A stretch of DNA of 64,000 nucleotides from Lachnospiraceae bacterium (lineage in GTDB: Bacteria > Bacillota > Clostridia > Lachnospirales > Lachnospiraceae): contig JAILRH010000187.1 in the NCBI GenBank assembly GCA_024698345.1, forward strand, positions 443 through 64,442, written 5' to 3'. The translations under genes were made by a program, and so were the position numbers. Of this stretch, positions 4,386-60,537 are shown one piece after another. Below the pieces are notes generated by a model. It was given only the letters and a program-made list of their open reading frames with translations, did no database searches and was not told the DNA's origin. How positions within the stretch are numbered: the stretch's first letter is position 1; the number at the start of each line of letters is the position of its first letter.

Positions 4386-4397
4386 GAGGAAATGCGA

Positions 4398-6354: not shown

Positions 6355-7393
6355 TTTTTATCAGAGTACACAGAATATAGCGAAGGCGGGTGCTTACTAT
6401 ACAGATCTTGCACATTGTGCAAGACTTTCACAGGCATTTAATTGGCCTGAAGGGGAAGTGTCCGTTTTAGAGCCTAGTGCTGGAGATGGTGCAGCAGTTA
6501 TTGAGATAACAAATAATTGCGACAAGCCTAAAATTTTTGCTGTTGAGCTTCGTACAGAAGCATTCAGAGAGCTGAAAAATAATAGCAATATAACATGTGC
6601 TATAAATTGTGATTTTTTACAGGCGAAAATTTCAAATAATGTGTTTTCGTTTATGTTTGCAAATCCACCATATATAAACGGTATGGACGGAAGAATGGAA
6701 GTAGAGTTTTTACAACGTTCGACAAGATATATCGCGGAGGATGGAATTATAGTGTATGTAGTTCCTTATTCAGTGGCTACCAGTCGTGAATACTTGAGCT
6801 TTTTGCTTAGAAATTACAAAGTGATTCATGCGTTTCGTTTTGATGAAGCAGAGTATGAGAAGTATAAGCAGATAGTATTTATTGCTAGGAAGGTAAAGAA
6901 TGAGGGAATAGAGGAAGAGCTTCAAAGATATATGGCAATGAGAAAAGAAGATTTTCCATTGATTCCGGAGGTTTGGACTGATGAATACGAACTTGTTGAT
7001 GTAGAAGAAAGCCCTGAAAGTAAAATAGTTTACTTTTCGTCAAAGGAATTCAATAGGGAGGAAGCTTTTATTGATTTGTGTGAATGTGAGCCTCAGAAGA
7101 AAAATTTGGATGCCTTGAGTATCAAAGCATTTTCTGCTAATGATATGGGACGTCCACCGGTAATGCCTAATCAGAATGTGTTGTATTTACTTTCGACACT
7201 CGGTTGTGGTTCGGGTATTACTGGATCAGAAGATAATATGGATATTCATTTACAGCGAGGTAATGCAAGAATATGCGAGTATTCATTTGAAGAGGTTAAC
7301 GAAAAGGGTAATGTTGAAGCTGTTACTCAGAGGAGTACTAAAGTATCTGTAACGATATTGGAAAATGACGGGACATTTACAGTGCTTGAATAA
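6341..7393 (+). CDS. N6-adenine DNA methyltransferase (orphan)
   Basis: Motif I VLEPSAGDGA and motif IV FANPPY; no restriction endonuclease gene adjacent. Confidence 0.8.
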   Translation: MLENNFYQSTQNIAKAGAYYTDLAHCARLSQAFNWPEGEVSVLEPSAGDGAAVIEITNNCDKPKIFAVELRTEAFRELKNNSNITCAINCDFLQAKISNNVFSFMFANPPYINGMDGRMEVEFLQRSTRYIAEDGIIVYVVPYSVATSREYLSFLLRNYKVIHAFRFDEAEYEKYKQIVFIARKVKNEGIEEELQRYMAMRKEDFPLIPEVWTDEYELVDVEESPESKIVYFSSKEFNREEAFIDLCECEPQKKNLDALSIKAFSANDMGRPPVMPNQNVLYLLSTLGCGSGITGSEDNMDIHLQRGNARICEYSFEEVNEKGNVEAVTQRSTKVSVTILENDGTFTVLE

Positions 7394-7407: not shown

Positions 7408-7447
7408 GGAGGAAAGGAGTCGCATTTTGCGGCTCCTGATTTGTGAA
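7408..7447 (+). promoter_or_regulatory. SD-hairpin-AUG translation-initiation element (4 of 6)
   Basis: GGAGG 7408-7412, 3 nt, stem GGAGTCGC/GCGGCTCC 7416-7436 (loop ATTTT, one G-U), 11 nt, ATG 7448. Confidence 0.55.
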
Positions 7448-10400: not shown

Positions 10401-10684
10401 ATGTGGATGATGTAAAGGAAATGTTTAAAAATATTTCCTTGAGTGGAAGCCGGTCATGGGATTGCAAACAGAATTTGTTGATTTCAGATATTACTACTAC
10501 TGTAGTAAAGACGGCAGAAAAACCAAGTTTGTTTGACGAATCTACATGGGGCGATGAATGGTTTGCATCGTTCTTTGGATCTATAAAAGAAGAATTTGAA
10601 AATGAAAAGAGTAAAAGCAAATCAAAGAAAAGAAAGGAGAAGAATAAACTCGAACAGTTAACACTCTTCGATTTATTCGAGTGA
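7448..10684 (+). CDS. SNF2-family helicase with zinc-ribbon insertions
   Basis: Motif I DMGTGKT, motif II FIADEAHMY, motif III LTGTLTNG, motif VI QASRRHYRLIQ. Four CxxC pairs (CVDCHK, CRHCGG, CPHCNE, CYNCLN). The ORF-track TTG 7427 lies inside the hairpin, so ATG 7448 is used. Confidence 0.85.
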   Translation: MEFSIGFQTISLDFAVVANEKGYVYSIFDRSAMMVRSMAVQASFDSVAIEGKTYGVPRNSEGDSYKTKRYIERFESGRDRVSSALIVNGAIGEKVFLTDDKGKYDDFYNFLMNNYTLPLLKEWSGYLYDGLVRSYFVSEYRNAVIGERLEREITLNGRNIRLDEMILVDCSSLDEEFLKRQVSTGLSSKKICITELPVKKLEFENLDEYYQKYGKNIVENLERVIDPLNEIDGYCPYVATKSKRLFPAQANGVNAYIKKFETSNGAIANMDMGTGKTLQALTTFDGFFNKKQMSQGKTLKQVIDEDCVNYVGAVLCPSHLVSKWVSEVSELPNAHAEAVTSLAQLIKINENRNLYKKGKHIFVFSKDFAKLGDMRAPIPTTVSRVLRAPYVQYCVDCHKNTGNYRYRQFGDRVCRHCGGNNWRKSLSREVSGNAVLCPHCNEVLIKNTTKKIDKNSYPEILTPVDFSSETSANRKCYNCLNPLWGAQVKNKGDGYKYKWKKLGYYTNKSRKGTSTAWILDGFKSSFMSVKNLKEDEVWESSNIGVRKYSPARYIQKHMKNFFDFFIADEAHMYESSSAQGQAFASLAKVSKKTLALTGTLTNGYAKGLFYLFWRIIPQKMVDMGYEFYGRDGVGKWNYTYGVLEKRTEYTEEELKYNTSSRGKKDSGMFKERPGVSPRLMKDFLLEDVIQLQISDLSEGLPELKEEIVSVEPEKEVVSSLNSLTNTLKNWASNNKCPAINIAALRYQLFYTDQPYDIPPILSPLTRGDIVAAPDNYPDLVANGGLLKKEIKLVEIVKKELEEGRRCYVFLENTGKSEFFLLKRIKKVLEENVPCAKPLIMEANSTSASKREDWMKNKIEKEKYNIVISNPRLVETGIDFVWKAKNGEGYNIPTIVFYQVGWSLATLWQASRRHYRLIQKEQCRTYYIVCEGTMQLECLQMMAEKQVAVSAIQGGEFSSRGLSSMAKGVDPKIELAKRMLAGEHSDVDDVKEMFKNISLSGSRSWDCKQNLLISDITTTVVKTAEKPSLFDESTWGDEWFASFFGSIKEEFENEKSKSKSKKRKEKNKLEQLTLFDLFE

Positions 10685-12372: not shown

Positions 12373-12828
12373 ATGAATAAGGTTATTTTAATGGGTCGAT
12401 TAACTAGAGACCCTGAAATTAGATATTCTCAGTCGGGAGATGGCCAGTTGGCAATTGCCAGATATACATTAGCCGTTGACCGCAGATTTAAAAGAGATGG
12501 TGATCAGCAGACAGCAGATTTCATTTCATGTATTGCATTTGGCAAACAGGGAGAATTTGCTGAGAAGTACTTACATCAGGGAACAAAGATGGTTGTCGAG
12601 GGAAGAATCCAGACAGGCAACTATACAAATAAAGAAGGCCAAAAAGTATATACAACAGATGTTGTGGTTGAAAACTCGGAATTTGCAGAGAGTAAAGCTT
12701 CAGCATCGAGTGTTGGAGTAAGTGTAGGTTTTAAGGGACAGACACCTCCGCAGCCAACATCAAATGTTGGTGATGGCTTCATGAATATACCAGATGGTGT
12801 AGAGGACGAAGGATTACCTTTCAATTAA
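12373..12828 (+). CDS. ssb: single-stranded DNA-binding protein
   Basis: MNKVILMGRLTRDPEIRY OB-fold start, Gly/Pro/Gln-rich linker, acidic tail DEGLPFN. Confidence 0.9.
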   Translation: MNKVILMGRLTRDPEIRYSQSGDGQLAIARYTLAVDRRFKRDGDQQTADFISCIAFGKQGEFAEKYLHQGTKMVVEGRIQTGNYTNKEGQKVYTTDVVVENSEFAESKASASSVGVSVGFKGQTPPQPTSNVGDGFMNIPDGVEDEGLPFN

Positions 12829-12872: not shown

Positions 12873-12921
12873 TTTTGAGAAAATAAGATGTTAAGAAAGA
12901 TAAATATCATTGGAGGTAAGG

Positions 12922-15900
12922 ATGGGGAGTAATCTTGATCTTTTTAGGAATAGAACAATACAAACAAAAACGATTTGTCAAAAATTAATCCCAATGGGTA
13001 AAACGAGGGAAACAATTGAAAAATACAATCTTATGGAAATTGACAGAAAAATAGCAGAAAATAAGGAACTGATGAACAAGCTGTTCAGTCTTATAGCAGG
13101 CAAGCATATAAATGATACACTTGCTAAATGTACTGATTTGAATTTTATTCCAATATTTGAGGGAATTACGGCACTAAATCAAGCAAAAGAGAACAATAGA
13201 GATAATTTGAGAGATTACTATGATACTGTTTTCGAAGCGAGAAAAAGTGTAGCAGAAGAAATTTCATCAAGATTAATAGAGTTGAAGTTTGCGGGAAAAG
13301 ATTTCTTCACTAAGATTATTCCTGATTTCTTGGAAAAATATAATGGTAAAGATAAAAATGAAATGAGTGAACTTGTATCGTTAGTAGTTGAAAATACCGC
13401 AACTGCTGGGTATGTAAAAAAACTCGAGAAAATAGATAATTCAATGGGTGTAAAATTGGTATCTGGGACAGTTGTAAAGAGGGTATTGACGGATAATACA
13501 GATATTTACGAAAAAAATATTGCACATACTAGAAATTTTGACTATGGAGTATTGCAAATTGAAGAATCAACTCAGTTTATGACTTTAGATTGGAAAGATT
13601 ATTCAAATTATATAACAGCTGATGGAATAGCTTTATATAATGCCATTATTGGAAAAATCAACCTTGCACTTAATGAATACTGCCAAAAGAATAAGGAATA
13701 TTCTTTTAATAAGTTGGCTCTTTTACCATTGCAAAAGATGTTGTACGGAGAAAAAACGAGTCTTTTTGAAAAATTGGAAGATTTTAGCTCTGATGATGAA
13801 CTTATAAACGCATATAACTCATTTATAAAAACAGTAAATGATTGTAAAATTGCTGAGAATATCAAAAAGACCATACCTTCTTATGATGAAATTATGATTA
13901 AGACTAACAAAATCAATTATTATTCTAATGTTATTACTGGTCAATGGTCAGCTGTTAATAGAGCCATGAAAGACTTTTTGGAAGATAATGGAATTAAAAA
14001 TGCCGATAAATATATGGAAAAAGGACTTACAGCATCAGAAATAGAAGATGCTTTGGAACATAAGAATATTAAACACACAGATTTTATATCAAATCTTATT
14101 ACAGATTTAGGTCATACTTATGCAGAAATTAAAGAAAATAAGGAATCGCTGAAAAAAGATGATTCCTTAAATTCAGTAATAATAAAAAAAGAATTGGATA
14201 AGTTGCTTTCAGTATTGCAAAACTTAAAGGTATTGGATGTGGATAATGAGATTTTTGATACAGGTTTTGGAATTGAGGTTTCTAAAACAATTGAAGTTTT
14301 GGGATTTGGTGTTCCTCTGTACAATAAAATTAGAAATTATATTACAAGGAAACCTGATCCAAAGAAAAAGTTTTTGACAAAATTTGGTTCAGCAACTATT
14401 GGAACAGGTTTAACAACAAGTGTTGAGGGTTCAAAAAGGGCAACGTTCATAAAAGATGGTGATGCTGTATTTCTTCTCTTATATAACGGCTATGGATGTA
14501 AAGCAAACAATATATCTGTAAGCAACCTTGCTGCGATTATTAATTCCGAACTTAGAGATACTAATAATGGCAATTCATATCAGAAGATGATATATCAGAC
14601 ACCTGGGGATATTAAAAAACAGATTCCAAGAGTGTTCGTTTACAAGTCTGAGGATGAAGAGTTGATTAAAGACTTCAAAGCAAAACTTCATAAAACGGAT
14701 TTATCATTTTTAAATGAAAGATTAATCCCTTATCTTAAAGAAGCCTTCGCAAATCATGAAACTTATAAGAATTATAAATTTAGCTATAAAAACAGTTATG
14801 AGTCATATGATGAATTTTGTGAGCATATGTCAGAACAGGCATATATCCTTGAATGGCAATGGATTGACAAGAAACTAATTGATGACTTGGTTGAAGATGG
14901 CTCTCTTTTGATGTTCAGAGTATGGAATAGATTTATGAAGAAAAAGGACGGGAAAATAAGCAAACATGCTAAAATTATAAACGAGCTTTTCTCTGAGAGA
15001 AACACATCAAATGCAGCAATTAAGCTGTTAAGTGTGTTTGATATTTTCTATCGAGATAAACAGATTGATAATCCTATCGTACATAAGGCTGGTTCTACTC
15101 TTTATAACAAGAGATCGAAGGACGGAGAAGTAATCTCTGATTATTCTTCAATGGTTAAGAATAAAGAAAAAAGAGAAAACGTTTATACTACAACTAAAAA
15201 GTACGATATAATCAAAGATAGAAGATATACTGAAGAGCAATTTGAATTACATATCCATGTTCAACTTGGAAAAGAAGAGAATAAAGAGATCCTTGAAACT
15301 TCAAAACTTATAAACGAAAAAAAGAATACTTTAGTAGTGACAAGAAGTAATGAGCATTTGCTTTATGCAGTAGTGTTTGACGAAAATGATAATATTCTTC
15401 TCAAAAAATCATTAAATACAGTTAAGGGTATGAACTTTAAATCAAAACTTGAAGCAGTAGAGATTCAGAAAAAGGAAAATATGCAGAGCTGGAAGACAGT
15501 TGGCAGTAATCATGCATTAATGGAAGGTTATCTTTCTTTCGCAATAAAGGAAATTGCTGATTTGATTAAGGAATATGATGCAATTCTTGTTTTAGAACAG
15601 AATTCTATTGGTAAAAATCTTCTTAACGAGCGTGTTTATACAAGATTTAAGGAGATGCTTCTTACTAACTTGTCATTGGATATAGATTACGTGAACAATG
15701 ACTTTTATTCATATACGGAAGTTGGGCAAAAGGTTAGTTCTTGGAGAGATTCTGTAACTAATGGAATCTGTATTCAGGTACCATCTGCTTATAAGTATAA
15801 GGACCCGACAACTACTTATTCTCCGGTAAGTATGTATGCAAAAACAACAGCAGAAAAAACTAAAAAACTCAAGCAAATCAAATCATTTAAGTATAATCGA

Positions 15901-16335
15901 GAAAAAGGTTTGTTTGAATTGGTTATTGCAAAAGGAGTAGGGCTTGAGAATAACATTGTATGTGATTCCTTTGGAGCAAGAAGTACTATTGAGAATGATA
16001 TCGCCAAAGAAGTAAACTGCACCATTAAGATTGAAAAATATCTCATTGATGCAGGTATCGAATACAATGATGAAGGGGAAATACTGAAAGAACTTGATAC
16101 TGCAACAAAGACAGATGCAGTTCATAAGGCGATATCTTTATTATTAAAGTGCTTTAATGACGAAGCAGGTGGAAGATATTACATATCGCCTTGTGGAGAA
16201 CACTTTACTTTATATGATACCCCTGAAGTATTATCTGCAATCAACTATTACATACGAAGTCAATACATAAGGAGACAGATTGTAGAAGGTGTAAAAAAAG
16301 TAGACTACAAGAAAATAATTCTACTTGCAGGATAA
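12922..16335 (+). CDS. cas12a: Cas12a (Cpf1)-family type V-A effector with substituted RuvC-I/Nuc residues
   Basis: ATG 12922 lies 5 nt after GGAGG. KTICQKLIPMGKT N-terminus; WED His/Lys/Lys triad region; RuvC-II AILVLEQ. RuvC-I reads LVVTRSNEHLLY instead of IGIDRGERNLLY. A canonical Cas12a-type repeat array follows immediately downstream. Confidence 0.9.
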   Translation: MGSNLDLFRNRTIQTKTICQKLIPMGKTRETIEKYNLMEIDRKIAENKELMNKLFSLIAGKHINDTLAKCTDLNFIPIFEGITALNQAKENNRDNLRDYYDTVFEARKSVAEEISSRLIELKFAGKDFFTKIIPDFLEKYNGKDKNEMSELVSLVVENTATAGYVKKLEKIDNSMGVKLVSGTVVKRVLTDNTDIYEKNIAHTRNFDYGVLQIEESTQFMTLDWKDYSNYITADGIALYNAIIGKINLALNEYCQKNKEYSFNKLALLPLQKMLYGEKTSLFEKLEDFSSDDELINAYNSFIKTVNDCKIAENIKKTIPSYDEIMIKTNKINYYSNVITGQWSAVNRAMKDFLEDNGIKNADKYMEKGLTASEIEDALEHKNIKHTDFISNLITDLGHTYAEIKENKESLKKDDSLNSVIIKKELDKLLSVLQNLKVLDVDNEIFDTGFGIEVSKTIEVLGFGVPLYNKIRNYITRKPDPKKKFLTKFGSATIGTGLTTSVEGSKRATFIKDGDAVFLLLYNGYGCKANNISVSNLAAIINSELRDTNNGNSYQKMIYQTPGDIKKQIPRVFVYKSEDEELIKDFKAKLHKTDLSFLNERLIPYLKEAFANHETYKNYKFSYKNSYESYDEFCEHMSEQAYILEWQWIDKKLIDDLVEDGSLLMFRVWNRFMKKKDGKISKHAKIINELFSERNTSNAAIKLLSVFDIFYRDKQIDNPIVHKAGSTLYNKRSKDGEVISDYSSMVKNKEKRENVYTTTKKYDIIKDRRYTEEQFELHIHVQLGKEENKEILETSKLINEKKNTLVVTRSNEHLLYAVVFDENDNILLKKSLNTVKGMNFKSKLEAVEIQKKENMQSWKTVGSNHALMEGYLSFAIKEIADLIKEYDAILVLEQNSIGKNLLNERVYTRFKEMLLTNLSLDIDYVNNDFYSYTEVGQKVSSWRDSVTNGICIQVPSAYKYKDPTTTYSPVSMYAKTTAEKTKKLKQIKSFKYNREKGLFELVIAKGVGLENNIVCDSFGARSTIENDIAKEVNCTIKIEKYLIDAGIEYNDEGEILKELDTATKTDAVHKAISLLLKCFNDEAGGRYYISPCGEHFTLYDTPEVLSAINYYIRSQYIRRQIVEGVKKVDYKKIILLAG

Positions 16336-16449
16336 ACAATCCTCAGTCTTGATGAGGGAGGAATAGAATTGTATATGTTAAAATGTACAAGTATGAGCTT
16401 TATTGATTATTAGATGATGTAATATTTTGTGCATTTTGACAATATACGA

Positions 16450-16917
16450 GTTAAATTAATAATAAATGTCTACTATACTGTAGATAACTATATTGTTAGG
16501 TATATTGCGTCGTTAAATTAATAATAAATGTCTACTATACTGTAGATAGAGATATGGTTGTGCATAGTATTTCAGTTAAATTAATAATAAATGTCTACTA
16601 TACTGTAGATCTGCTTAGGTCTGTTGCAAATGCAAGAGTTAAATTAATAATAAATGTCTACTATACTGTAGATTTATCCATTGTTAAGTTCTTAATAAAC
16701 TTAAATTAATAATAAATGTCTACTATACTGTAGATTGATAGCAGTTTCCACTGTTTTCTGCGTTGAATTAATAATAAATGTCTACTATACCGTAGATTCG
16801 ATTTGCTTAGACCATCAATAGAGAGTTAAATTAATAATAAATGTCTACTATGGTGTAGATAACTGATAGAGAAAGAGTGAAACAGACTTAAATAAAAATG
16901 TCTATCATAGCATAGTT
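16450..16917 (+). CRISPR. type V-A CRISPR array, 7 spacers
   Basis: 36-nt repeat GTTAAATTAATAATAAATGTCTACTATACTGTAGAT at 16450, 16512, 16575, 16638, 16700, 16762 and 16825, plus a truncated degenerate copy at 16887-16917. Spacers are 26-27 nt. The repeat 3' end forms the Cas12a handle UCUAC-loop-GUAGA-U. Confidence 0.95.
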
Positions 16918-52465: not shown

Positions 52466-52492
52466 ATGCCAAAAAAGAAGGGAGGAAGCTAT

Positions 52493-53299
52493 ATGATCAT
52501 TATCTATGGCAATGAACCATACTGTATTGACAAACATGTTACAAAACTAAAAGAACAGTATGATTCAAAGGTTTTCGATGAAATAAATGAATCGGAAATC
52601 ACTACATTTTTATGTAGTATTAGTTTTTTTGAAACTAAACCAAAGGCTGCTGTATACAACTTAATTGACAAAAAAGATGTTACCAAATTAAAACCGATTA
52701 CCGGCTTAAATGTGATTGTGTACTATTATGGTGCGTGCGCAGAGATAAAAAAGTTTGCAGAGAAAAATGAGGTCGAAGTATTTCTTTATGAAAAGTATAA
52801 TATGAGGCAATTATACAAATTTATCAATAATCGTATAAAAGCGGATGAACAGACAATAGGTTTGTTTGTTGAGCGAATAGGTTATCTTAATGATAAAGAT
52901 GTTAGTTTGTATGATATTGTTACTAACTGTGAAATATTAAGCTCGTTAGAAGATGTAAGCAAATCAGCGATTGCATCATTATATGGTGAAACTGTTGAAA
53001 GTAAAGTTTTTGCTATTGCAGGCATGTTGGAAAAAAATAATTCTTTAGCTCTAAGTTATGCTAGTAATTGTCCTGCAGGAGAAGAACTTGCATACCTGGG
53101 TGCGCTCCAACGCTACTATAGAGTTGGCTGGAAAAAGAATTATTTACATGATGTCGGAAACGGATATAAAGTTAATCCGGAGAGGGCTAAAACCTGTTTA
53201 AATATATTGAACTCAAGGTGGGATGATATAGTAAACGGTAAATTGACTGCAAAACTGGCTTTAGTTTGTGCTATCAAGGAGGTGTTGGCTCTTGGTTAG
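52493..53299 (+). CDS. holA: DNA polymerase III delta-like clamp-loader subunit
   Basis: MIIIYGNEPYCIDKH (cf. YLLLGNDPLLLQES); FAIAGMLEKNNSLALSY...GEELAYLGALQRYYR (cf. delta domain III F.L.DA...G....AL..L..L...GE.P..LL..L.R). Shorter than E. coli delta. Confidence 0.55.
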   Translation: MIIIYGNEPYCIDKHVTKLKEQYDSKVFDEINESEITTFLCSISFFETKPKAAVYNLIDKKDVTKLKPITGLNVIVYYYGACAEIKKFAEKNEVEVFLYEKYNMRQLYKFINNRIKADEQTIGLFVERIGYLNDKDVSLYDIVTNCEILSSLEDVSKSAIASLYGETVESKVFAIAGMLEKNNSLALSYASNCPAGEELAYLGALQRYYRVGWKKNYLHDVGNGYKVNPERAKTCLNILNSRWDDIVNGKLTAKLALVCAIKEVLALG

Positions 53300-53357
53300 G
53301 TATTATCTTGATAATAGCATTGTTAAGGATGAATTTAAAAAAATGCGTGAAAAGAAA

Positions 53358-53385
53358 ATCGATAAGCAGAGTCCTGCTTATCGAT
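53358..53385 (+). terminator. 12-bp stem-loop, probable terminator with interrupted U-tract
   Basis: ATCGATAAGCAG AGTC CTGCTTATCGAT followed by TTAGTCTTTTTA. Confidence 0.45.
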
Positions 53386-53573
53386 TTAGTCTTTTTATGG
53401 CATCAGAAAATCCAACAGATTTCTCATTAGAGGAGCTGTTGGATTTTTATTATCACTGTCCCTGACTATAGCTCGCAGTATATGCGTCTTGAATTTGTAG
53501 AATTATCAAAGAAACTTAATAAAGCAGATTCAGCAATTTCAAGACAGGTTTGGTTTTAGAAAAGGAGGAAGAT

Positions 53574-54257
53574 ATGGGTGATATATTAGATATCCATATT
53601 GATTTATCAAAATGTGATGAGGCTAAGGTTAGTTTTTTGGAAGGAGAGCTTTATAGTTCAAAAATAGTTGATTACAATACTTTAGCTAAGTTTATTAACA
53701 AAATATCAAAGACTGAAACAAAAATAGGTTATTCGATTCCCAACAATTGTGTTTCTTTAATTAATGAAAACGATAACGTAGAAGTTACCGTTTACAAAGA
53801 AGCATGTATACTTCCTGTTGTTATGTATGACGGTTCGGCGTATTTAGTGCCTTATCCTAAATTGATATTCAACATTAGCATAAATTTAGAAGATAGGGTG
53901 ATGAATAGCTGTAAATGTTTTGCAATCAAAGATTCTGCCGATCCTTATGATTTGGATGAGGAATTGTATCTGTTTCCGTATTCAAATGTGGGTGGTAATG
54001 GTGATGTTTGTTTTGGTAGCAATGCGACCAATGATTTACAAGGCTCGATACGAGAGATTGTTGGATATTTGTTGGATTTGTTTTATAGTGCACCATATAA
54101 CGGCGACTACTACAATATGTCTAGAACAGGATATCTTATTGGTTCTTTGCCTGAGCTTTTTAAAAAGCTGAATGGGCACGAGTCATTTGATGATAAGATG
54201 CTAGTATCTACTAATAAACAAATCGGTGAAGTGTTTGATATTAAAAACTTATATTAA
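53574..54257 (+). CDS. prokaryotic E2-like (UBC-fold) protein candidate
   Basis: ATG 53574 follows AAGGAGGA. LFPYSNVGGNGDVCFGS resembles the E2 HPN-x-C active-site loop (Cys codon 54009-54011). Operon partner of JAB and E1-like genes. Confidence 0.5.
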   Translation: MGDILDIHIDLSKCDEAKVSFLEGELYSSKIVDYNTLAKFINKISKTETKIGYSIPNNCVSLINENDNVEVTVYKEACILPVVMYDGSAYLVPYPKLIFNISINLEDRVMNSCKCFAIKDSADPYDLDEELYLFPYSNVGGNGDVCFGSNATNDLQGSIREIVGYLLDLFYSAPYNGDYYNMSRTGYLIGSLPELFKKLNGHESFDDKMLVSTNKQIGEVFDIKNLY

Positions 54258-54273
54258 ATTATAAAAATAAAAA

Positions 54274-54306
54274 GGAGGAAGATGCTATTTAGCATCGATA
54301 TGAATT
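54274..54306 (+). promoter_or_regulatory. SD-hairpin-AUG translation-initiation element (5 of 6)
   Basis: GGAGG 54274-54278, 2 nt, stem GATGCT/AGCATC 54281-54296 (loop ATTT), 10 nt, ATG 54307. Confidence 0.5.
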
Positions 54307-56109
54307 ATGAGTGAAATGAATGAAGTATTTGATTTTGGTGGAATGTTTGGATTTGATACAGATAATGTTCCTACAGCAAAAAAACCAGAAAAGAAGAAAG
54401 AAGCTAACAAAACAGAGAAAAAAGAAAAAAAGAGCTCTAAGACTGCTAAGAAAGAAGAAGAAAAGTTTTCTTTGCCTGTTACTGTTTATTGTGAATGGGG
54501 TGAAGAAATTGTCATTGAGGGTGCATCTGATGAAAGTATTACTTTAAGTGCACTGTCAAAGAAAGTTACTAAATTTCCTTGTGAAGTGGTACATAAAAAT
54601 GATTTCTTTGTTGCTGTTCCCAAAAGTTCTTCAATAGAAAATTTGGAAAATGTAGAGGGAGATGTTCTTATTATGGGACAGTTAATTAAAGTTTCTAAAG
54701 GAACGCTCGAAGATACAATCAAAGAATTGCTTGCTGAGTATCCTGAATTGGAAGAGGTTAAATGTTACAAGTCGGGAAAATCCTATCGTTTAAAACACGA
54801 TACTAGTGCAACAGCTGCTTGGAATGTGAAACTCCCAGTTGGTACAAAGGTAGGTTTATTAGGAACTGATTATATGGTAATGGATGGTGACGAAAATACT
54901 GAGTATACTTTGAAGGAAATCGCTACAAAGTACGTCGAAAAGTGTCCTTGGCTCAAATCTTTGGACTTGTGTTGGAAAGTAATTGATAAGGGATCAGATA
55001 AATATGCAATTGCATATTTAGTAGAAAATAAATCTACTGAAAAACTTATTGTAAAGCTTCCATGTGATATACGCTTTATACATGATGCAGGACCTTTAAG
55101 TGGTGGTTTAACGTCAGATATGTTTGGCGGGAAAGAATATGTAGAAACAAATGAAATATTAAAAGTAGTATCCAAATATTTCCCTGGTATATATCAGGAG
55201 AAGAATACTAATATCACTTATGTGGCAGAAGTAAATACCGTATGCGTGGTGCATATGGGACGAGCAAAAGGTTGTGTACTTGAAGTATCGACCTATGCCG
55301 GAAAGTTCAAAATAGATGAAGATGGTTTGGAGTATAAAAGATTGATTAAGAAGATTCCTCAGGGGTTTTTGTATGATATCATAAATTATTTCAAATCCAT
55401 GATGCCTAATGAAGCTATTGTACAAATTGCTTATGATAAAGAACGAGATAAATATAGAATTATCTATCCTGAAGCTAAAGTAATGCGGGCAAGAGTGGAA
55501 TGGGATGATACAGATATGCTTTTATCATTAAACAAAAATGAGGCGGTTGTGTGTGAAATTCATTCGCATAACAGTATGCCGGCTTTCTTCAGTCTTGTTG
55601 ATGATTACGATGAAGTGTCGCCTTTAATATACGGTGTCATAGGTAAGCTTGATTGTAAATATCCATCTATGGCTTTTAGGGCTGGGTTTAACAATAAGTT
55701 TGAGCAACTGGATGTTTTTGATATTTTTGAATTAGAAGATTTTGGGAATGTTTTTAAAAATACATCAGGAGCACTGTGTACTGTGCTTTGTTCCAACAAG
55801 AATCATAAATTAATATTCAATACTAAACAAGGTGCATTTTATTTAATACATGGGCCATTTGAATTGAGAGACGGAACTATTGAGTGGGCTCATAGCAGTT
55901 ATCTTGGCGAGAATATGATGGCTATAGATTTTTATAATTTATATAGTGAGTATTTTGTGCCAGATAACAGAGAATGTGTATCCATAATCGAAGTATTGAA
56001 AAAAGATGTATCTTTAAACGGTAAGTCCAAAGAAGATATCATAAGTGATTATTATGAAGAGAACTATGTATTGACTTCTGAAAATCATTCAAATACATAT
56101 TTCGTTTAA
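54307..56109 (+). CDS. JAB/JAMM metalloprotease-domain protein with long N-terminal region (600 aa)
   Basis: Exact JAMM signature EIHSHNSMPAFFSLVDD (H-x-H-x7-S-xx-D; His codons 55561-55569, Asp 55600-55602). Lys-rich N-terminus; two possible beta-grasp-like segments. Confidence 0.7.
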   Translation: MSEMNEVFDFGGMFGFDTDNVPTAKKPEKKKEANKTEKKEKKSSKTAKKEEEKFSLPVTVYCEWGEEIVIEGASDESITLSALSKKVTKFPCEVVHKNDFFVAVPKSSSIENLENVEGDVLIMGQLIKVSKGTLEDTIKELLAEYPELEEVKCYKSGKSYRLKHDTSATAAWNVKLPVGTKVGLLGTDYMVMDGDENTEYTLKEIATKYVEKCPWLKSLDLCWKVIDKGSDKYAIAYLVENKSTEKLIVKLPCDIRFIHDAGPLSGGLTSDMFGGKEYVETNEILKVVSKYFPGIYQEKNTNITYVAEVNTVCVVHMGRAKGCVLEVSTYAGKFKIDEDGLEYKRLIKKIPQGFLYDIINYFKSMMPNEAIVQIAYDKERDKYRIIYPEAKVMRARVEWDDTDMLLSLNKNEAVVCEIHSHNSMPAFFSLVDDYDEVSPLIYGVIGKLDCKYPSMAFRAGFNNKFEQLDVFDIFELEDFGNVFKNTSGALCTVLCSNKNHKLIFNTKQGAFYLIHGPFELRDGTIEWAHSSYLGENMMAIDFYNLYSEYFVPDNRECVSIIEVLKKDVSLNGKSKEDIISDYYEENYVLTSENHSNTYFV

Positions 56110-56115
56110 TAGAAA

Positions 56116-56154
56116 GGAGGATGAGAGCTGCGTTTTGCGGCTCTCTATATTTAT
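56116..56154 (+). promoter_or_regulatory. SD-hairpin-AUG translation-initiation element (6 of 6)
   Basis: GGAGG 56116-56120, 2 nt, stem GAGAGCTGC/GCGGCTCTC 56123-56145 (loop GTTTT, one G-U), 9 nt, ATG 56155. Confidence 0.55.
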
Positions 56155-56901
56155 ATGAATAAAATGATTAATGGAAAAACCAAGAGTGAAATAATGAAAG
56201 AACTAGCAGCGCCTTTTAATAGTTCTGATATACAGCCAACACATGATGGTTTTCAATGTGTTTCTATCCAAAAAATATTGGATAGGCTTGATCAAGTTAT
56301 TGGTTGTCTGAATTATAGTATAGAAACTATAGCAACGGAGATTACTGATAGAGTAATATATAAAACTGTCAGAATTACAATATATTATGATGATGGTAGT
56401 ATTTGTTGTTGTAAAGATGGTGATGGCGGTTCAATGTTCATTTTTCAAAAAACTGGGGAAGAAAATGATGAAAAGGATGTTAAAACACCTGGTAATACTA
56501 ACGCATCTGCTTGTAGTGAAGCTATAAAGCAAGCTGCAAGAAAATTAAGAATTGGAGTTGATGTGTATAACAATAATTGTTTAATCGGTGATGCTATGGG
56601 CGATAGAGAAATTCTCCCTGGAAGAAAAGTGACGGGGCAGGTTGAGGAGTTTAAGATAAGCTTTCTGTCCGATTTCACGAGGTGTGGTGGCGCATATCAA
56701 GCAAAGGTCAAGACGCAAGATGGAGAAGCTTGTACGCTTCATATTTGGCATGAAGATATTGAGCGATTGCGTAATATGGGGCTTCTAGGCGATTTGGCTG
56801 AACGTGCAAAAACTTTATCAAAAGCAAAGTTGAGAGGCGTCTACAAGATTTATGAAGATAGATATCCACAAATCATTTTTAAGGAGGTTGCACATGAATG
56901 A
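56155..56901 (+). CDS. Rad52/Sak-type single-strand annealing protein candidate
   Basis: ELAAPFNSSDIQPT...CVSIQKILDRLDQVIGCLNYS and ASACSEAIKQAARKLRIGVDVYN match my recollection of Rad52_Rad22-family bacterial/phage SSAPs (L..PF....I..R...Y.....V..RLN.V.G...W; A.SDALKR.A..FGIG..LY). Confidence 0.45.
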   Translation: MNKMINGKTKSEIMKELAAPFNSSDIQPTHDGFQCVSIQKILDRLDQVIGCLNYSIETIATEITDRVIYKTVRITIYYDDGSICCCKDGDGGSMFIFQKTGEENDEKDVKTPGNTNASACSEAIKQAARKLRIGVDVYNNNCLIGDAMGDREILPGRKVTGQVEEFKISFLSDFTRCGGAYQAKVKTQDGEACTLHIWHEDIERLRNMGLLGDLAERAKTLSKAKLRGVYKIYEDRYPQIIFKEVAHE

Positions 56902-57247
56902 TAGTATTGAATTAAAACATGCTATAAATGAAGTGTGTTATTATACAAAAAAACTGTATGAATTAAAAAATGACATGCAGTTAGGTGTCATTCCTGATGA
57001 AGAATACATTGAAACAATAGTTTCAAACTTGGATGATGCTGAAAGTAGACGATTATCACTTTTAACTGACAGCGATAATAAGAGTAATTCATTTACCGAC
57101 AATATAATATTCAAAGATAATGGTGAACTTATTGACGGAGTGGTTGTTGGACCTGTTAATGGAGCTTTGGATTTTGTTGCTGAACAGTCTGCAAGTGATG
57201 ATTTATATATGCGAGAGATGGCAGCTTTTGTTGCCATCTCATTATGA
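56894..57247 (+). CDS. hypothetical protein (117 aa)
   Basis: ATG 56894 follows AAGGAGG and overlaps the upstream stop. Confidence 0.5.
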   Translation: MNDSIELKHAINEVCYYTKKLYELKNDMQLGVIPDEEYIETIVSNLDDAESRRLSLLTDSDNKSNSFTDNIIFKDNGELIDGVVVGPVNGALDFVAEQSASDDLYMREMAAFVAISL

Positions 57248-58311
57248 TTGACTTTAAACTGTACCCTATATTGTTCACAAAAAGGACTTTAGGGTGCAGT
57301 TCTTTTGATTGTGATGGCTATTCATGTTCTAATGTTGCATCGGCGGCCAGACTAAAAGTTATCAATACTGTTTTGCAAAGGCTGTTAAAAAATAATTATT
57401 ATAACAGTCGAACTCGCAAATCAATATTTAAAGACATTGTTCTTAAGAATGGTGTATTAAAAATCAATCACGTAACTGCTTCTAGTTTAAATAAAAAAAG
57501 CCCTGAAGATGCTATTGAGCTTTACAATTTTGATGTTATTAATAATTTCTTTTTTAACACATACAATAGGAAATCATATTGGAAAAATACTATTGATGAT
57601 GGAGAAGATATTGTTGTGGCATCATATGAGTTATATATGTCGCTAAATGCATTATGCGAATGTGGAAAATACCAGTTTCTTTTGTCAGGTATTGATTTGT
57701 TAATGATGGATGGTGATATATATCAGCATGTTTTAGATGATGATTGGGATTCCTTTTGTAATGAAATAGTAGAGTACAGTATCGATAATTCCAAACAAAA
57801 TATATCAACAGATGAATGTCTAGAATTTCTACAGAGTGATATTCAATTATATGATACGTTTTGTGATTTGCATAAGGAAATGAGCTCAAGCAATATAATT
57901 TCATTTGCTTATGAAGGGATTATTCCGTATATGATAGCTAATTATCAATCTTTCAATGATACATTGTACATTTACGAGACATATGAATGTGAAATCATAA
58001 ATGATTACAAAGAGTTTAAATTATCGTTGTTAGACAATTTAAATGATGAATTAATTGATAGAGCTGATTATCTTATATCGTTACACCCTTCTAAGTTTGC
58101 TTTTTTTCACGAATTATTGAATTATGACTATGGAGAATGTGACATTGCCAATTACGAATATATGCCATTAATGCTTGGTTTGTATATGGTGGAAGTAGAC
58201 GAAGTTATGAGAAGGCTTAATGATAAATATAGTTTTTCAAGGCAACAACCTGAATTAGTTGACGGTTCTTGTTTTTATGAAAGAAAAAGGAGGAACTACA
58301 AAAATGATTAA
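57244..58311 (+). CDS. hypothetical Tyr/Asp/Cys-rich protein (355 aa)
   Basis: ORF overlapping its neighbours by a few nt (translational coupling). Confidence 0.55.
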   Translation: MIDFKLYPILFTKRTLGCSSFDCDGYSCSNVASAARLKVINTVLQRLLKNNYYNSRTRKSIFKDIVLKNGVLKINHVTASSLNKKSPEDAIELYNFDVINNFFFNTYNRKSYWKNTIDDGEDIVVASYELYMSLNALCECGKYQFLLSGIDLLMMDGDIYQHVLDDDWDSFCNEIVEYSIDNSKQNISTDECLEFLQSDIQLYDTFCDLHKEMSSSNIISFAYEGIIPYMIANYQSFNDTLYIYETYECEIINDYKEFKLSLLDNLNDELIDRADYLISLHPSKFAFFHELLNYDYGECDIANYEYMPLMLGLYMVEVDEVMRRLNDKYSFSRQQPELVDGSCFYERKRRNYKND

Positions 58312-59032
58312 TTATAATATTGTTTGTGTAGGATGTGGAGGAACTGGTAGCGCTTTTTTACAAAAATTAGCTCGCTATCAGGCATCCAGTAAAGAAATAA
58401 TAAATGTTGCCGTTATTGATGGTGATATAGTAGAACAGAAGAACTTAATACGTCAGAATTTTTTCTCTGGCGATATTAGAAAGAAAAAGGCAAATTGCAT
58501 TATCGATCTTGCGTCTTGTTCTTATGGTGTCAATTGGTTTTCATACCCGGACTATCTTGTTGATTCAAAACAAATTGCTGAGATATTTAATTCAATGGTA
58601 TCAAATAACAATATGAATATAAATATGCTAGTAGGGTGTGTTGATAACCATAATGCTAGAAGAGTGATGGAGTCCTGGTTCGAAAAACAAAATAATTGTT
58701 TTTATATTGATTCTGCCAATGACGAATATGATGGTGAAGTTATTGTATCATGCATGGCTAATTCACAGGAAGTTTCTCCTAGGAGAAGTTTTTATTTTCC
58801 TGATGTGCTTACTGATGAAACACCATCTGTGGTTGAATTAAGCTGCGAGCAAAGAAATATTTCATCGCCACAACATCAGACAACCAATGACATGGCCGGT
58901 AATATTATTTTATCGGTAGTATCTCAAATTATAAATAGAAATGTTCCTACAGGAATGATTCTATTTGATTCTAAAGAGTTTATCTGTAAAAGATTGGCTT
59001 TTTCCGATGGAAAGTTGGTGGTTGATCCATGA
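58304..59032 (+). CDS. ThiF/MoeB/E1-like adenylyltransferase
   Basis: ATG 58304 follows AAGGAGGA. Rossmann VCVGCGGTGS, DGDIVEQKNLIRQNF (Arg finger), GCVDNHNARR. Confidence 0.75.
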   Translation: MINYNIVCVGCGGTGSAFLQKLARYQASSKEIINVAVIDGDIVEQKNLIRQNFFSGDIRKKKANCIIDLASCSYGVNWFSYPDYLVDSKQIAEIFNSMVSNNNMNINMLVGCVDNHNARRVMESWFEKQNNCFYIDSANDEYDGEVIVSCMANSQEVSPRRSFYFPDVLTDETPSVVELSCEQRNISSPQHQTTNDMAGNIILSVVSQIINRNVPTGMILFDSKEFICKRLAFSDGKLVVDP

Positions 59033-59883
59033 TGAGCATTGATGAAAAAATCCAAAAACTTAAACAGGTGCTGACATGTATAAAAGATAGAGATATTGGA
59101 GAGGAATGTGATTGTATTAATGATGACTACTATATTTCTGAAAATAAGAGCGTTGCATTTAAATACAAGTTTGTTGTTTATTTATTAAACTACTTAGAAA
59201 TATTTCCATTTAAACTGAATTATGAAACAGAATGTATGTTTGATGAATACTATATGCATGCTAAATTTGATTCATTAATTTCTGACCTGTTTAAAAATCT
59301 TATAGCTTGGAAATTGGCTGATATTGGTCAGGATGTTTATGATTGTGTAACAAGTTATCTCGATACTAATAGCATTAAGAAGTTTGATTTTTCTACCTTG
59401 CATTCAGTATTAAATGATAAAAGTAATGCTGATTATACAATCGCCGTTGGTATAAAAAAGATAATTAGTGAAGAAATTGGCTACTATTTTGGTTCAACGA
59501 GCGATGAAGTGGAAAAGCTTTTTGCTAGAACCGGAGATTATTATATAAATGGAGATTATGGAGAATTTTTTGCGTGCAATATTTATGCGTGCCATAAATA
59601 TAAAGAAATGGTAGAAAAAGGATATATTGATGAAAGTTTTCTTATGCTGGAGTATCCAGTTTATTATTATCCTTATGATATGTCGCCTGTATGGAATAAA
59701 GATATGGGTATAGGCGGATATATGACGGGTTATTCGGACAACTTCATGAGCCATGTCTTGAGTCATGAATATGTATCTGTTAAATTTCTACTGTCTTTAT
59801 TGTACGTTGAATTAGTATACAGAAAGCATTATTTACAAGATGAAGTGAAATATTACAAGCAAGGAGATTTTTCTTATAAGTAA
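59029..59883 (+). CDS. hypothetical Tyr-rich protein (284 aa)
   Basis: ATGA overlap with the E1-like gene. Confidence 0.55.
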   Translation: MMSIDEKIQKLKQVLTCIKDRDIGEECDCINDDYYISENKSVAFKYKFVVYLLNYLEIFPFKLNYETECMFDEYYMHAKFDSLISDLFKNLIAWKLADIGQDVYDCVTSYLDTNSIKKFDFSTLHSVLNDKSNADYTIAVGIKKIISEEIGYYFGSTSDEVEKLFARTGDYYINGDYGEFFACNIYACHKYKEMVEKGYIDESFLMLEYPVYYYPYDMSPVWNKDMGIGGYMTGYSDNFMSHVLSHEYVSVKFLLSLLYVELVYRKHYLQDEVKYYKQGDFSYK

Positions 59884-60504: not shown

Positions 60505-60537
60505 AAGGAGAATCTTTCGAGATTCTCCTTTTTTTTT
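60505..60537 (+). terminator. intrinsic terminator
   Basis: AAGGAGAATC TTTCGA GATTCTCCTT followed by a T-run. Confidence 0.8.

Follow-up and report, generated by a model that had tools for sequence, protein, structure and literature searches.

Conjugation through a C-terminal glycine, and its reversal by a JAB peptidase, are carried out in type II CBASS by Cap2 and Cap3. In eukaryotes, ubiquitin precursors are made as tandem repeats or fusions and are cut after the terminal glycine before activation, and ubiquitin and SUMO control PCNA and Rad52. The class closest to the locus described here is PRTRC, or 'class 6d' (PMC1779556; TIGR03735-03738), which like our cassette is plasmid- or ICE-borne and a computational prediction only. 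A 2006 paper (PMC1779556) already listed operons of this class from Gram-positive bacteria, and a literature search found no functional paper on any member.

The window, by which we mean the whole 64,000-nucleotide stretch of Lachnospiraceae DNA that was analysed, carries a variant of such a cassette. We consider it probable that this is a mobile-element module for conjugating a ubiquitin-like protein (Ubl), of the PRTRC/'class 6d' lineage, in which one pro-protein would contain both the Ubl and its own JAMM peptidase, and the Ubl would act in the element's DNA transactions.

The E2-like, JAB and E1-like enzymes

An initial annotation had proposed an E2-like/JAB/E1-like triad linked to a Rad52-like gene on a conjugative element. 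All of the features it quoted were present where it had placed them, on the + strand, and the analysis supports its reading of the cassette as largely right, though too narrow. The first gene (53574..54257, + strand) encodes a 227-aa protein containing LFPYSNVGGNGDVCFGS, which matches the Prok-E2_D family (Pfam PF14460) with 38.6 bits (gathering cut-off 25). The E2-like loop that had been seen in this protein was borne out: the predicted catalytic Cys146 (codon 54009-54011) was invariant in 59/59 homologues, within the conserved family motif [YF]-P135-x-x-N138-V139-x6-C146-x-G148. The His reported as conserved after the E2 Cys in class 6d is absent from this family, and a search of the PDB by sequence with the family profile gave no match.

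The compact adenylation domain reported at 58304..59032 (+ strand) is likewise a genuine ThiF-fold, E1-like enzyme of 242 aa, containing VCVGCGGTGS, NLIRQNF and GCVDNHNARR and scoring 55.8 bits with Pfam ThiF. Its ATP site and predicted thioester Cys181 (codon 58844-58846) are conserved, with G10xGG13xG15, D39, R50-Q51, K62, D114, R119, D136 and S180-C181 invariant in 31-80 homologues. Searched against the PDB, the family profile gave ubiquitin E1 Uba1, MccB, UBA6, UBA5 and SUMO E1 as its best matches (E ∼1e-11); it matches E1s for ubiquitin, SUMO, NEDD8 and UFM1.

The 600-aa JAB protein (54307-56109) contains EIHSHNSMPAFFSLVDD. Its JAMM/MPN+ metallopeptidase domain (residues 326-478; 55282..55740, + strand) carries the motif H419-S-H421...S429..D432 (55561-55602), the exact JAMM motif noted initially, and E369, H419, S420, H421, S429 and D432 were all invariant in 112 relatives. 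Pfam Prok-JAB scored 23.3 bits, just under its cut-off of 25. The best Foldseek matches of the domain were Rpn11, AMSH/Sst2, archaeal JAMM1 and the bacterial Ubl-deubiquitinase 8tyx_B (all probability 1.00), and the fold resembles deubiquitinases in complex with ubiquitin or a Ubl. Most relatives stop near residue 478 and lack the extra C-terminal domain of the window protein (residues 479-600; 55741..56109, + strand), which is modelled with a beta-rich segment at 491-534 (moderate confidence) and has a weak DpnD/PcfM-like Pfam match at 557-596 (E = 0.0015, below cut-off).

The E2, JAB and ThiF matches to Pfam and NCBIfam are far above chance, and the best NCBIfam models were PRTRC_B (E = 1e-6), PRTRC_A (3e-13, on the JAMM domain) and PRTRC_ThiF (2e-25); the triad is real and PRTRC-related. 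The genes are, as first described, closely spaced or overlapping on one strand. Gaps of 49 nt (E2-JAB) and 45 nt (JAB to the single-strand annealing protein, SSAP) are followed by overlaps of 8 nt (56894/56901, SSAP and 117-aa genes), 4 nt (57244/57247, 117-aa and 355-aa genes), 8 nt (58304/58311, 355-aa and ThiF genes) and 4 nt (59029/59032, ThiF and 284-aa genes). GGAGG ribosome-binding sites lie 5' of the cassette gene starts, that of the E2-like gene included.

The long JAB family comprises 607 representative clusters at E ≤ 1e-30. The initial description of a 'Firmicutes-plasmid version' was too narrow, since the window holds one member of a family of ∼600 clusters at 50% identity. At the loci with enough flanking sequence (n = 33), the ThiF gene was found in 33/33, the E2 gene in 32/33 and a Rad52-like gene in 29/33; the four genes E2, JAB, ThiF and SSAP are found together, with their order shuffled between loci. 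Conserved co-occurrence, which had been put forward as a check, was seen for the three enzymes in dozens of independent loci. Neither a non-UBC fold without co-occurrence nor an inactive JAMM site in orthologues, the outcomes that had been named as contrary to the initial reading, was found.

A putative Ubl array fused to the peptidase

The JAB protein begins with an acidic/aromatic 'phi-F-G' peptide, after which comes a disordered, Lys-rich linker (together residues 1-52; 54307..54462, + strand), with pLDDT below 50 over residues 1-34. An N-terminal [LMVIFW][SDNT][LFI]F motif was found in 74/150 relatives, where shuffles predict 8, and a Q-x-[SDNT]-phi-[FL] motif in 30/150 (1.1 expected); the window's own copy is degenerate.

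Between this region and the peptidase lie four tandem Ubl-like repeats (residues 53-110, 112-168, 170-243 and 244-322; 54463..55272, + strand). Two weak Ubl-like starts had been suspected here; the Ubl likeness is now strengthened, whilst the number becomes four, the repeats being homologous to one another in hhalign comparisons (probability 91-97%, E 1e-6 to 1e-11). Each is modelled as a small alpha+beta domain of beta-hairpin, helix and beta-hairpin (pLDDT 70-96). The last repeat ends G-R-A-K-Gly322 (Gly322 codon 55270-55272). Like the catalytic residues, Gly322 is shared by 112/112 relatives, and position 321 is occupied by K or R in 109/112; the family motif at the repeat/peptidase boundary reads S-G-[KTR]-K-G. 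We predict Gly322 to be the site of processing and conjugation. The Ubl tail is Lys-Gly rather than the Gly-Gly that had been looked for. Canonical PRTRC_C/Prok_Ub proteins end in G-T-K-G or G-D-K-G, and a second clostridial architecture has ...A-Q-[SK]-K-G directly N-terminal to its JAB domain.

The absence of a free small Ubl ending in Gly-Gly, noted at the outset, was upheld more broadly: a same-strand search up to 9 kb from the JAB gene turned up no small ORF with a terminal Gly, and the clostridial loci held no plausible free small ORF with a Gly end. At delta-proteobacterial and Myxococcales loci, free 62-aa proteins with C-terminal A-G-T-K-G are encoded 5' of E2-JAB-ThiF, and these match the JAB repeat profiles along their full length. 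The D2 repeat profile matched them with 88.6% probability (E 2.6e-6) and the D3 profile with 67.7%, in an alignment that reaches the terminal KG, the link passing through three intermediate sequences of low diversity (probabilities 68-89%). Searches with the repeats gave no match among Pfam, NCBIfam and PDB sequence families, Prok_Ub included, and a direct profile comparison with Prok_Ub was not significant; whole-chain Foldseek on the N-terminal region returned only low-probability POTRA-array matches. From sequence comparison, the apparently missing Ubl appears to be fused to the JAB peptidase, although the assignment is not settled.

A non-conjugating cassette would have ThiF performing sulfur-carrier or peptide-adenylation chemistry (ThiS/MoaD/MccB-like), the JAB domain acting as a RadC-like nucleic-acid enzyme and the repeats forming a DNA- or protein-binding array. 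The ThiF protein does also match ThiF/MoeB/MccB models, DNA binding by the Lys-rich linker is conceivable, no library search returned a Ubl for the repeats, which show weak POTRA-like fold matches, and RadC-type JAB domains of mobile elements have been suggested to target nucleic acids (PMC5512222). However, 32/33 loci encode an E2-family protein, whose Cys is invariant, the JAB protein matches PRTRC_A and deubiquitinases and not RadC, and the invariant Gly lies in a G-x-K-G tail common to Prok_Ub proteins. With Pfam and NCBIfam also finding no rhodanese, sulfurtransferase or cofactor-biosynthesis gene in the cassette, we regard this explanation as very improbable.

The Rad52-like protein and the surrounding element

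The 248-aa SSAP (56155..56901, + strand) had been likened to Rad52/Sak. On its own the resemblance is weak (Pfam Rad52_Rad22 E = 0.16), but it holds at family level, where 24/28 members match Rad52_Rad22 (best 1.9e-16). Human RAD52 was the sole PDB match of the family profile (E = 0.035), and NCBI labels the Butyrivibrio pNP144 orthologue Rad52/Rad22. With a Rad52-like gene in 29/33 loci, the 'embedded SSAP' belongs to the near-obligate core of the clostridial systems and is no accident of this locus.

The SSAP has a small conserved partner of 117 aa (56894..57247, + strand), which had no library match, shares 42% identity with a syntenic protein of locus L001 and is linked by hhalign (probability 81%, E 1.2e-5) to a 150-160-aa family in 12 window-type loci; in L019, the sole locus checked for adjacency, that family's gene lies directly 3' of the SSAP gene. 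The two remaining proteins are fast-evolving. The 355-aa protein (57244..58311, + strand) is syntenic with a 313-aa ORF in L001-L003 to which BLASTP sees no similarity, and a seeded HMM gave no match outside those loci; library searches with the protein found nothing either. The 284-aa protein (59029..59883, + strand) is 24% identical to its syntenic L001 counterpart, with no homologues elsewhere and no library matches.

Directly 5' of the cassette is a HolA-like (DNA polymerase III delta/clamp-loader) gene (52466..53299, + strand; NCBIfam holA E = 1.3e-9, below cut-off), homologues of which adjoin the cassette in L001, L007, L009, L013-L019 and L022. Other DNA-transaction genes in the window encode DnaX, delta'-like, SSB, SNF2 and a DUF6094 methyltransferase. 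Related loci have UvrD, pol III delta, SSB, ArdC, an SMC-like ATPase, Ku plus ligase and DnaN near the cassette, the frequent neighbours being SSB, clamp or clamp-loader genes, helicases and an orphan methyltransferase. The designation of the DNA as a conjugative element is plausible: the window holds a VirB4-like ATPase (below Pfam cut-off), a lysozyme+NlpC/P60 protein, a 9x SpaA adhesin and an LPD1 domain, although neither a relaxase nor an oriT was located. A Cas12a CRISPR locus lies on the same element, and phage records include long JAB proteins as well as a 'PRTRC system protein A'.

These surroundings bear on two other roles. The cassette could be an anti-phage defence of the Bil or type II CBASS kind riding on a plasmid, with the Ubl put on phage proteins upon infection. 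It has the same E1, E2, JAB and Ubl enzyme logic, multi-beta-grasp Ubls occur in Bil/Bub operons (PMC11601603), 8tyx_B was the top structural match of the JAB domain's first model, and the Cas12a locus and phage records fit as well. We nevertheless consider defence unlikely, as PADLOC found nothing for the E2, JAB, SSAP or uncharacterized proteins and gave ThiF only generic Rossmann similarity to CBASS E1-E2 models, no CD-NTase or effector gene was found in the cassette by Pfam or NCBIfam searches, and the genes conserved beside the cassette are of replication, recombination and anti-restriction type, not defence genes, with Rad52 linkage in 29/33 loci. Alternatively, the cassette could act against the host, placing the Ubl array on host defence or repair proteins, or stripping host conjugates with the JAB peptidase, so shielding incoming DNA. 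Neighbours characteristic of the early or establishment regions of conjugative elements (SSB, ArdC, the orphan DUF6094 methyltransferase, SNF2 helicase and the polyvalent-protein LPD1 domain) and the addiction-like or protection roles on which Iyer et al. 2006 (PMC1779556) speculated make this possible. It is still a rather doubtful reading: without a located oriT or relaxase a leading-region position is unproven, no likeness to known anti-defence proteins was found in the libraries searched, and in most loci the E2 and SSAP genes lie no more than 50 nt apart, which favours an element-encoded partner over a host target.

Proposed pathway and comparison with known systems

For a conjugation module serving the element itself, we infer from sequence that the JAMM domain would cut after Gly322 (Gly322-Cys323), in cis or in trans; the structure model lends this step no support, the tail around Gly322 being of low confidence and not docked in the peptidase. 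The ∼36 kDa product would comprise the N-terminal motif, Lys-rich linker and four Ubl repeats, ending ...K-G-COOH. The E1 would adenylate the terminal Gly, hold the array as a thioester on Cys181 and hand it to Cys146 of the E2, which would attach it to lysines of target proteins, and the freed JAMM peptidase could undo the modification. The most likely setting, and the least certain step, would be the element's own DNA transactions, with transferred DNA being established, replicated or recombined. The Rad52-like protein, SSB and clamp-associated proteins are candidate targets, although genomic proximity is no proof that the SSAP acts as a substrate or partner. The Rad52 linkage hints at control of recombination or replication by bacterial mobile DNA through protein tagging.

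Judged by its sequence, the cassette is a variant of the computationally predicted '6d'/PRTRC class and not a strict PRTRC member. PRTRC_B, PRTRC_A and PRTRC_ThiF are the top models for its enzymes, and the E2-then-JAB adjacency and G-x-K-G tail are common to both, but all three scores fall under the equivalog cut-offs (PRTRC_ThiF 89.5 bits against 144.75). The PRTRC Ubl is a free 68-70-aa protein, whereas here a four-repeat array is fused to the JAB protein, in which the N-terminal part of PRTRC_A (JAB-N) is unmatched; ParB and PRTRC_C/E/F are lacking, with a Rad52-type SSAP as core gene instead.

Bil (BilABCD)/Bub likewise has separate E1, E2, JAB-type peptidase and Ubl components, and the Bil deubiquitinase structure 8tyx_B resembles the window JAB fold. 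No PADLOC model matches the window E2 or JAB, however, the window Ubl is joined to the peptidase, and the cassette sits among replication and recombination genes of conjugative elements rather than in defence islands. The E1/E2/JAB chemistry is also that of type II CBASS, but Cap2 is an E1-E2 fusion, whereas this locus encodes E1 and E2 separately and lacks a CD-NTase, and Cap2 models match only the ThiF Rossmann segment, weakly.

By analogy with eukaryotic ubiquitin precursors, the window Ubl would be made as a tandem-repeat or fusion precursor, though one fused to the processing peptidase itself. Because only the last repeat has the conserved Gly, a single array would be released, not monomers. 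The physical linkage of the cassette to a Rad52-family protein and to clamp or clamp-loader genes may likewise parallel eukaryotic control by ubiquitin and SUMO.

Organization and distribution of the cassette

The seven cassette genes (53574-59883) lie on the + strand of a 64.7-kb contig from a Lachnospiraceae MAG. The window covers nearly all of this contig, its long ORFs all run on the + strand, and its G+C content is ~33%. The cassette genes have GGAGG ribosome-binding sites; most overlap the next gene by 4 or 8 nt, and two junctions are short gaps. All motifs quoted in the initial annotation were found at their positions in a sequence check, and the 600-aa JAB protein (54307-56109) is identical to the product of NCBI locus tag K6G88_11170. 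In the cassette region 11 terminator-like hairpins were observed, where 3.5 were expected. Hairpins before the E2 gene (53356-53387), between the JAB and Rad52-like genes (56123-56145) and past the small ORFs that follow the cassette (60505-60530) suggest a transcription unit of ~53.4-60.5 kb, with possible internal attenuation. An Rfam scan of the window returned no RNA family, and a blastn search of the cassette against plasmid and phage collections gave no match.

A word-indexed protein search found 6 JAB relatives, and a repeat with their alignment added none. For the JAB family, an exhaustive profile search gave 4982 representative clusters at E ≤ 1e-3, of which 607 reached E ≤ 1e-30; nearly all of the best 150 were full-length, at 500-620 aa. 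The loci compared with locally built profiles were metagenome loci, the B. hungatei plasmid pNP144 and 80 loci from species-representative genomes (7-sequence alignment). The cassette is present in the cultured Butyrivibrio hungatei MB2003 (pNP144), Clostridium leptum DSM 753 and Flintibacter muris DSM 110149. Co-occurrence was counted over the 33 loci whose flanks extend at least 7 kb upstream and at least 8.5 kb downstream: ThiF was present in all 33, E2 in 32 and the Rad52-like gene in 29. Two of the four loci lacking the annealing protein (SSAP) are delta-proteobacterial and Myxococcales loci with a free Ubl. The cassette is a real and well-conserved system.

Two clostridial architectures were distinguished. 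The window type has the order [SSAP]-E2-longJAB-[SSAP-small protein]-ThiF, and a HolA-like gene is often close by. In the commoner type the order is JAB-ThiF-(3-6 kb)-E2-SSAP, at most 50 nt separate E2 from SSAP, and ...A-Q-[SK]-K-G stands immediately N-terminal to the JAB domain; the region preceding this KG has weak links to Ubls (probability 5-15%). Recurrent neighbours include a DUF6094 DNA-methyltransferase-like protein (49 loci), SSB (26 loci) and an SMC_N/AAA_23 ATPase of ~600 aa located 3' of the Rad52-like gene (33 loci). A DnaN-like clamp - MoxR AAA+ - VWA gene set precedes the JAB gene in at least 15 loci (in the range L031-L078 of the related loci), and UvrD, pol III delta, ArdC and SNF2 helicases also occur. 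In C. leptum DSM 753 (locus L038, 6899-8673), Ku and an ATP-dependent DNA ligase precede the JAB gene.

A BFVD search with the JAB model retrieved long JAB proteins of 392-560 aa in uncultured Caudovirales, aligned well past the JAB domain, and Acinetobacter phage vB_AbaM_ME3 has a protein annotated 'PRTRC system protein A'. Related modules are thus also present in phages or phage-like elements.

The enzymes and the fused repeats

The JAB domain occupies residues 326-478, in the C-terminal half of the 600-aa protein (+ strand), and its best NCBIfam model is PRTRC_A (E = 3e-13). The score of 49.6 bits is below the equivalog cut-off of 101.8, and the alignment covers only model positions 72-190 of 192, on residues 347-467. 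The JAB-N alpha+beta domain, with its conserved Arg and Trp, was unmatched in the protein, where the repeat array takes up the N-terminal part. The JAMM zinc site, E369 and H419-S-H421-x7-S429-x2-D432, is invariant in 112 relatives. An AlphaFold model of the full-length protein from the 112-sequence alignment (mean pLDDT 77.8) was matched by Foldseek to Rpn11, AMSH/Sst2 and archaeal JAMM1, each with probability 1.00; a first model, from the 7-sequence alignment, also matched the bacterial Ubl-deubiquitinase 8tyx_B with probability 1.00. As judged from its sequence and predicted structure, the domain is of the deubiquitinase type and not of the RadC type. At its C-terminus the window protein carries an additional domain of ~120 aa (55741-56109), missing from most relatives, with a weak match to the DpnD/PcfM-like family seen on conjugative elements.

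The E2-like protein (53574-54257, + strand) matches Pfam Prok-E2_D (PF14460) at 38.6 bits, over a gathering cut-off of 25, and its best NCBIfam model is PRTRC_B, at 28.2 bits and below the equivalog cut-off of 131.45. Cys146 is invariant in 59 of 59 homologues, inside the motif [YF]-P-x-x-N-V-x6-C-x-G. Among these 59, a conserved His C-terminal to the Cys is absent and Asn176 and Asp178 are conserved instead. A search of the PDB with the E2 family profile gave no match. The E1-like protein, with a ThiF fold (58304-59032, + strand), matches Pfam ThiF (PF00899) at 55.8 bits and, as best NCBIfam model, PRTRC_ThiF at 89.5 bits, below the equivalog cut-off of 144.75. Its family profile matched in the PDB the E1s for ubiquitin, UFM1, SUMO and NEDD8, as well as UBA6 and MccB, at E ~1e-11. 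The family invariants are the G10xGG13xG15 nucleotide loop, the Arg-finger residue R50, the Mg-binding D114 and a Ser180-Cys181 pair, of which Cys181 is the putative catalytic, thioester-forming residue.

Residues 1-52 of the JAB protein are predicted to be disordered, comprising an acidic/aromatic peptide and a Lys-rich linker, and are followed by four small alpha+beta domains (residues 53-322; pLDDT 70-96 in the AlphaFold model). The initial annotation had pointed, as a weak possibility, to two Ubl-like starts upstream of the JAB domain; these belong to two of the four domains. The four are mutually homologous (hhalign of sub-alignments, probability 91-97%, E 1e-6 to 1e-11). Repeat 4 ends in S-G-[KTR]-K-G, which is followed by a variable linker and the JAB domain. 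Gly322 is kept in 112 of 112 relatives, an invariance equal to that of the zinc ligands, and Lys321 is K or R in 109 of 112.

Free Ubls of canonical systems end similarly: canonical PRTRC_C proteins are Pfam Prok_Ub members (59-66 bits) with the tails ...V-G-T-K-G and ...F-G-D-K-G. Three delta-proteobacterial or Myxococcales loci found via the JAB motif, with the order small protein ... E2 - JAB - ThiF, encode free 62-aa proteins with the tail ...A-G-T-K-G. The profiles of repeats 1-4 all align to these proteins in the same register, with hhalign probabilities of 88.6% (E 2.6e-6) for repeat 3 and 67.7% (E 4.9e-5) for repeat 4, the latter alignment running through the terminal K-G. The 62-aa proteins are themselves linked weakly to Prok_Ub by hhalign (probability 39.9%, E 3e-4) and have no PF14454 match. 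Searches of the repeats against PF14454 (Prok_Ub), Pfam, NCBIfam and PDB sequences matched no family, with nothing credible for repeat 4 (domain D3), and hhalign against a Prok_Ub profile made only of 78-97% identical sequences was not significant. In favour of beta-grasp modifiers are the secondary-structure pattern of the repeats, the invariant terminal Gly and the profile links to the free 62-aa proteins; against them is the lack of a direct match to Prok_Ub or to solved Ubls.

The initial annotation reported no free small Ubl, and an ORF search bears this out: a ~70-aa Gly-ending ORF is absent from the window and likewise from the clostridial loci. The functional equivalent of the free Ubl appears to be fused to the JAB protein, with a G-x-K-G tail and the invariant Gly322. 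That the repeats are Ubl-like, with a putatively conjugatable C-terminal Gly, is well supported by context and motif and moderately by sequence. A non-conjugating system, of sulfur-carrier or RadC-like type, is unlikely in view of the invariant E2 Cys, the deubiquitinase-type JAB domain and the G-x-K-G tail.

The acidic/aromatic N-terminal peptide (54307-54360) is conserved across the JAB family, as in QMDLF, QMSLF and DLFSMFGI, and the motif is clearly non-random, being about 9 to 27 times as frequent as in shuffled sequences. The beta-clamp-binding consensus is QL[SD]LF, which a subset of the family N-termini resembles. The window copy is degenerate and the Q-type motif shows no preference for loci encoding their own DnaN, and for these reasons clamp binding was retained only as a lead.

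The element and a proposed pathway

The SSAP of the window (56155-56901) taken alone gives a sub-threshold match to Pfam Rad52_Rad22 (PF04098; E = 0.16). Within its family, for which the window protein was a seed of the local model, 24 of 28 members match PF04098 (best 1.9e-16), and in the PDB human RAD52 is the sole match to the family profile (E = 0.035). The pNP144 orthologue is named Rad52/Rad22 by NCBI. The adjoining 117-aa protein (56894-57247, + strand) belongs to a family present in 12 window-type loci, whose member in the related locus L019 is likewise encoded immediately 3' of the SSAP gene. For the 355-aa and 284-aa proteins, no relatives were detected beyond the three closest loci (L001-L003), and hhalign found no relationship between the two.

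The element encodes its own clamp-loader-like set, namely an RFC/delta'-like AAA+ protein (2913-3983), DnaX (4392-5744) and a HolA-like delta subunit (52466-53299), as well as an SSB (12373-12828), all on the + strand; a DnaN-like clamp was not found in the window. A DUF6094 methyltransferase-like gene (6341-7393) lies directly upstream of a gene for a 1085-aa SNF2/ResIII helicase (7427-10684), both on the + strand. The two families are common E1/E2/JAB neighbours in related loci and are here ~45 kb from the cassette. A 556-aa protein (472-2142, + strand) has a C-terminal LPD1 (large polyvalent-protein-associated) domain, a hallmark of proteins delivered early by phages and conjugative elements (PMC5512222). 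The window also holds a plasmid-borne type V-A CRISPR locus (12910-16915), consisting of a Cas12a/Cpf1-like ORF (12910-16335, + strand) with Pfam RuvC_1, Cpf1 REC2 and PI domains and an array (16450-16915) of 7-8 repeats of ~36 nt (GTTAAATTAATAATAAATGTCTACTATACTGTAGAT) spaced 62-63 nt apart. The large window ORFs that were scanned included neither cas1 nor cas2. The region 20033-46373 contains putative Gram-positive transfer/adhesion genes, encoding a VirB4-like ATPase (sub-threshold AAA_10 match), a lysozyme-like and NlpC/P60 hydrolase, a BspA-type LRR protein and a 1606-aa protein that contains nine SpaA domains. Among several large ORFs lacking Pfam matches, neither a relaxase nor a coupling protein could be recognised.

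The presence and conservation of the E1, E2, JAMM peptidase and repeat array, the junction Gly and the gene linkage are established. An E1 requires a free C-terminal carboxylate, and JAMM peptidases cleave Ubls directly behind their last Gly, so that a pro-Ubl freed by its own peptidase is the simplest reading. The JAMM domain would cut after Gly322, the freed Ubl would be activated on Cys181 of the E1, handed to Cys146 of the E2 and coupled to lysines, and the freed JAB protein would act as the eraser of the modification. The Lys-rich linker is a possible self-acceptor or DNA-binding element. The fused Ubl would supply the missing modifier, and self-cleavage after Lys-Gly322 is a sharp biochemical prediction.

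The neighbouring genes suggest a role in the element's DNA transactions, with Rad52, SSB or clamp-associated proteins as candidate targets. In some respects the context is equally compatible with an anti-defence or establishment role directed against host proteins. For a role in DNA transactions, we can offer a fuller scheme, which as a whole we consider improbable: in conjugative elements of gut Clostridia, a self-processing poly-Ubl would tag the recombination-replication machinery of the element or host and so control the establishment or recombination of incoming DNA, with the N-terminal peptide serving as a tether that may bind the clamp. Candidate targets of such poly-Ubl tagging are the Rad52-like annealing protein, SSB, the sliding clamp and the clamp loader. 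If true, this would be a bacterial counterpart of the control of PCNA and Rad52 by ubiquitin and SUMO. In hundreds of clostridial mobile elements, the pathway is linked with replication genes and a Rad52-type recombinase. If its target is the DNA-transaction machinery, protein tagging would control horizontal gene transfer in the gut microbiome, an evolutionary parallel to the modification of PCNA and Rad52 in eukaryotes.

Comparison with known systems

To our knowledge, bacterial Ubl conjugation has so far been demonstrated only for anti-phage systems (type II CBASS and Bil). The E1 and E2 of the window cassette are separate genes, whereas those of CBASS are fused, and the cassette contains neither a CD-NTase nor a dedicated effector gene. 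PADLOC gave weak E1-E2 Rossmann matches for ThiF only and nothing for the other six cassette proteins, and PHROGs yielded nothing useful for the cassette proteins. A Bil/CBASS-like role in anti-phage defence is disfavoured by this near lack of PADLOC matches and by the gene neighbourhood.

Among systems described so far, the nearest is the 'fourth operon type' of Iyer, Burroughs and Aravind (2006; Table 1, row 6d; PMC1779556), which combines a Ubl ending in Gly, a JAB protein with JAB-N, an E1, an E2 without the HPN His and a helical protein that evolves fast. Its E2 has an absolutely conserved His C-terminal to the Cys. The operon type was found in proteobacteria, Bacillus cereus/thuringiensis, cyanobacteria and Bacteroides, in part on mobile elements (PMC1779556). 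The NCBI PRTRC models correspond to this class. The window cassette is like it in having a Prok-E2_D E2 with the conserved Cys, and in that PRTRC models are the best for all three enzymes. However, the E2, JAB and ThiF proteins each fall under the equivalog cut-off, JAB-N and the conserved post-Cys His of the E2 are missing, and there is no free Prok_Ub/PRTRC_C protein. The ParB, PRTRC_E and PRTRC_F models, which have matches in the canonical PRTRC loci L011 and L012, had none among the scanned cassette and flanking proteins. In the literature we found neither an experimental paper on PRTRC nor any account of a Ubl-JAB fusion or the Rad52 linkage, an earlier mention in work of the Aravind group being possible.

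The window cassette would work like the PRTRC/6d class but, given these missed cut-offs and absent components, is not a strict member of it, and is a variant of a kind so far only predicted. The plasmid-borne PRTRC or 6d class was predicted in 2006, and the window variant occurs in cultured hosts, where experiments are cheap.
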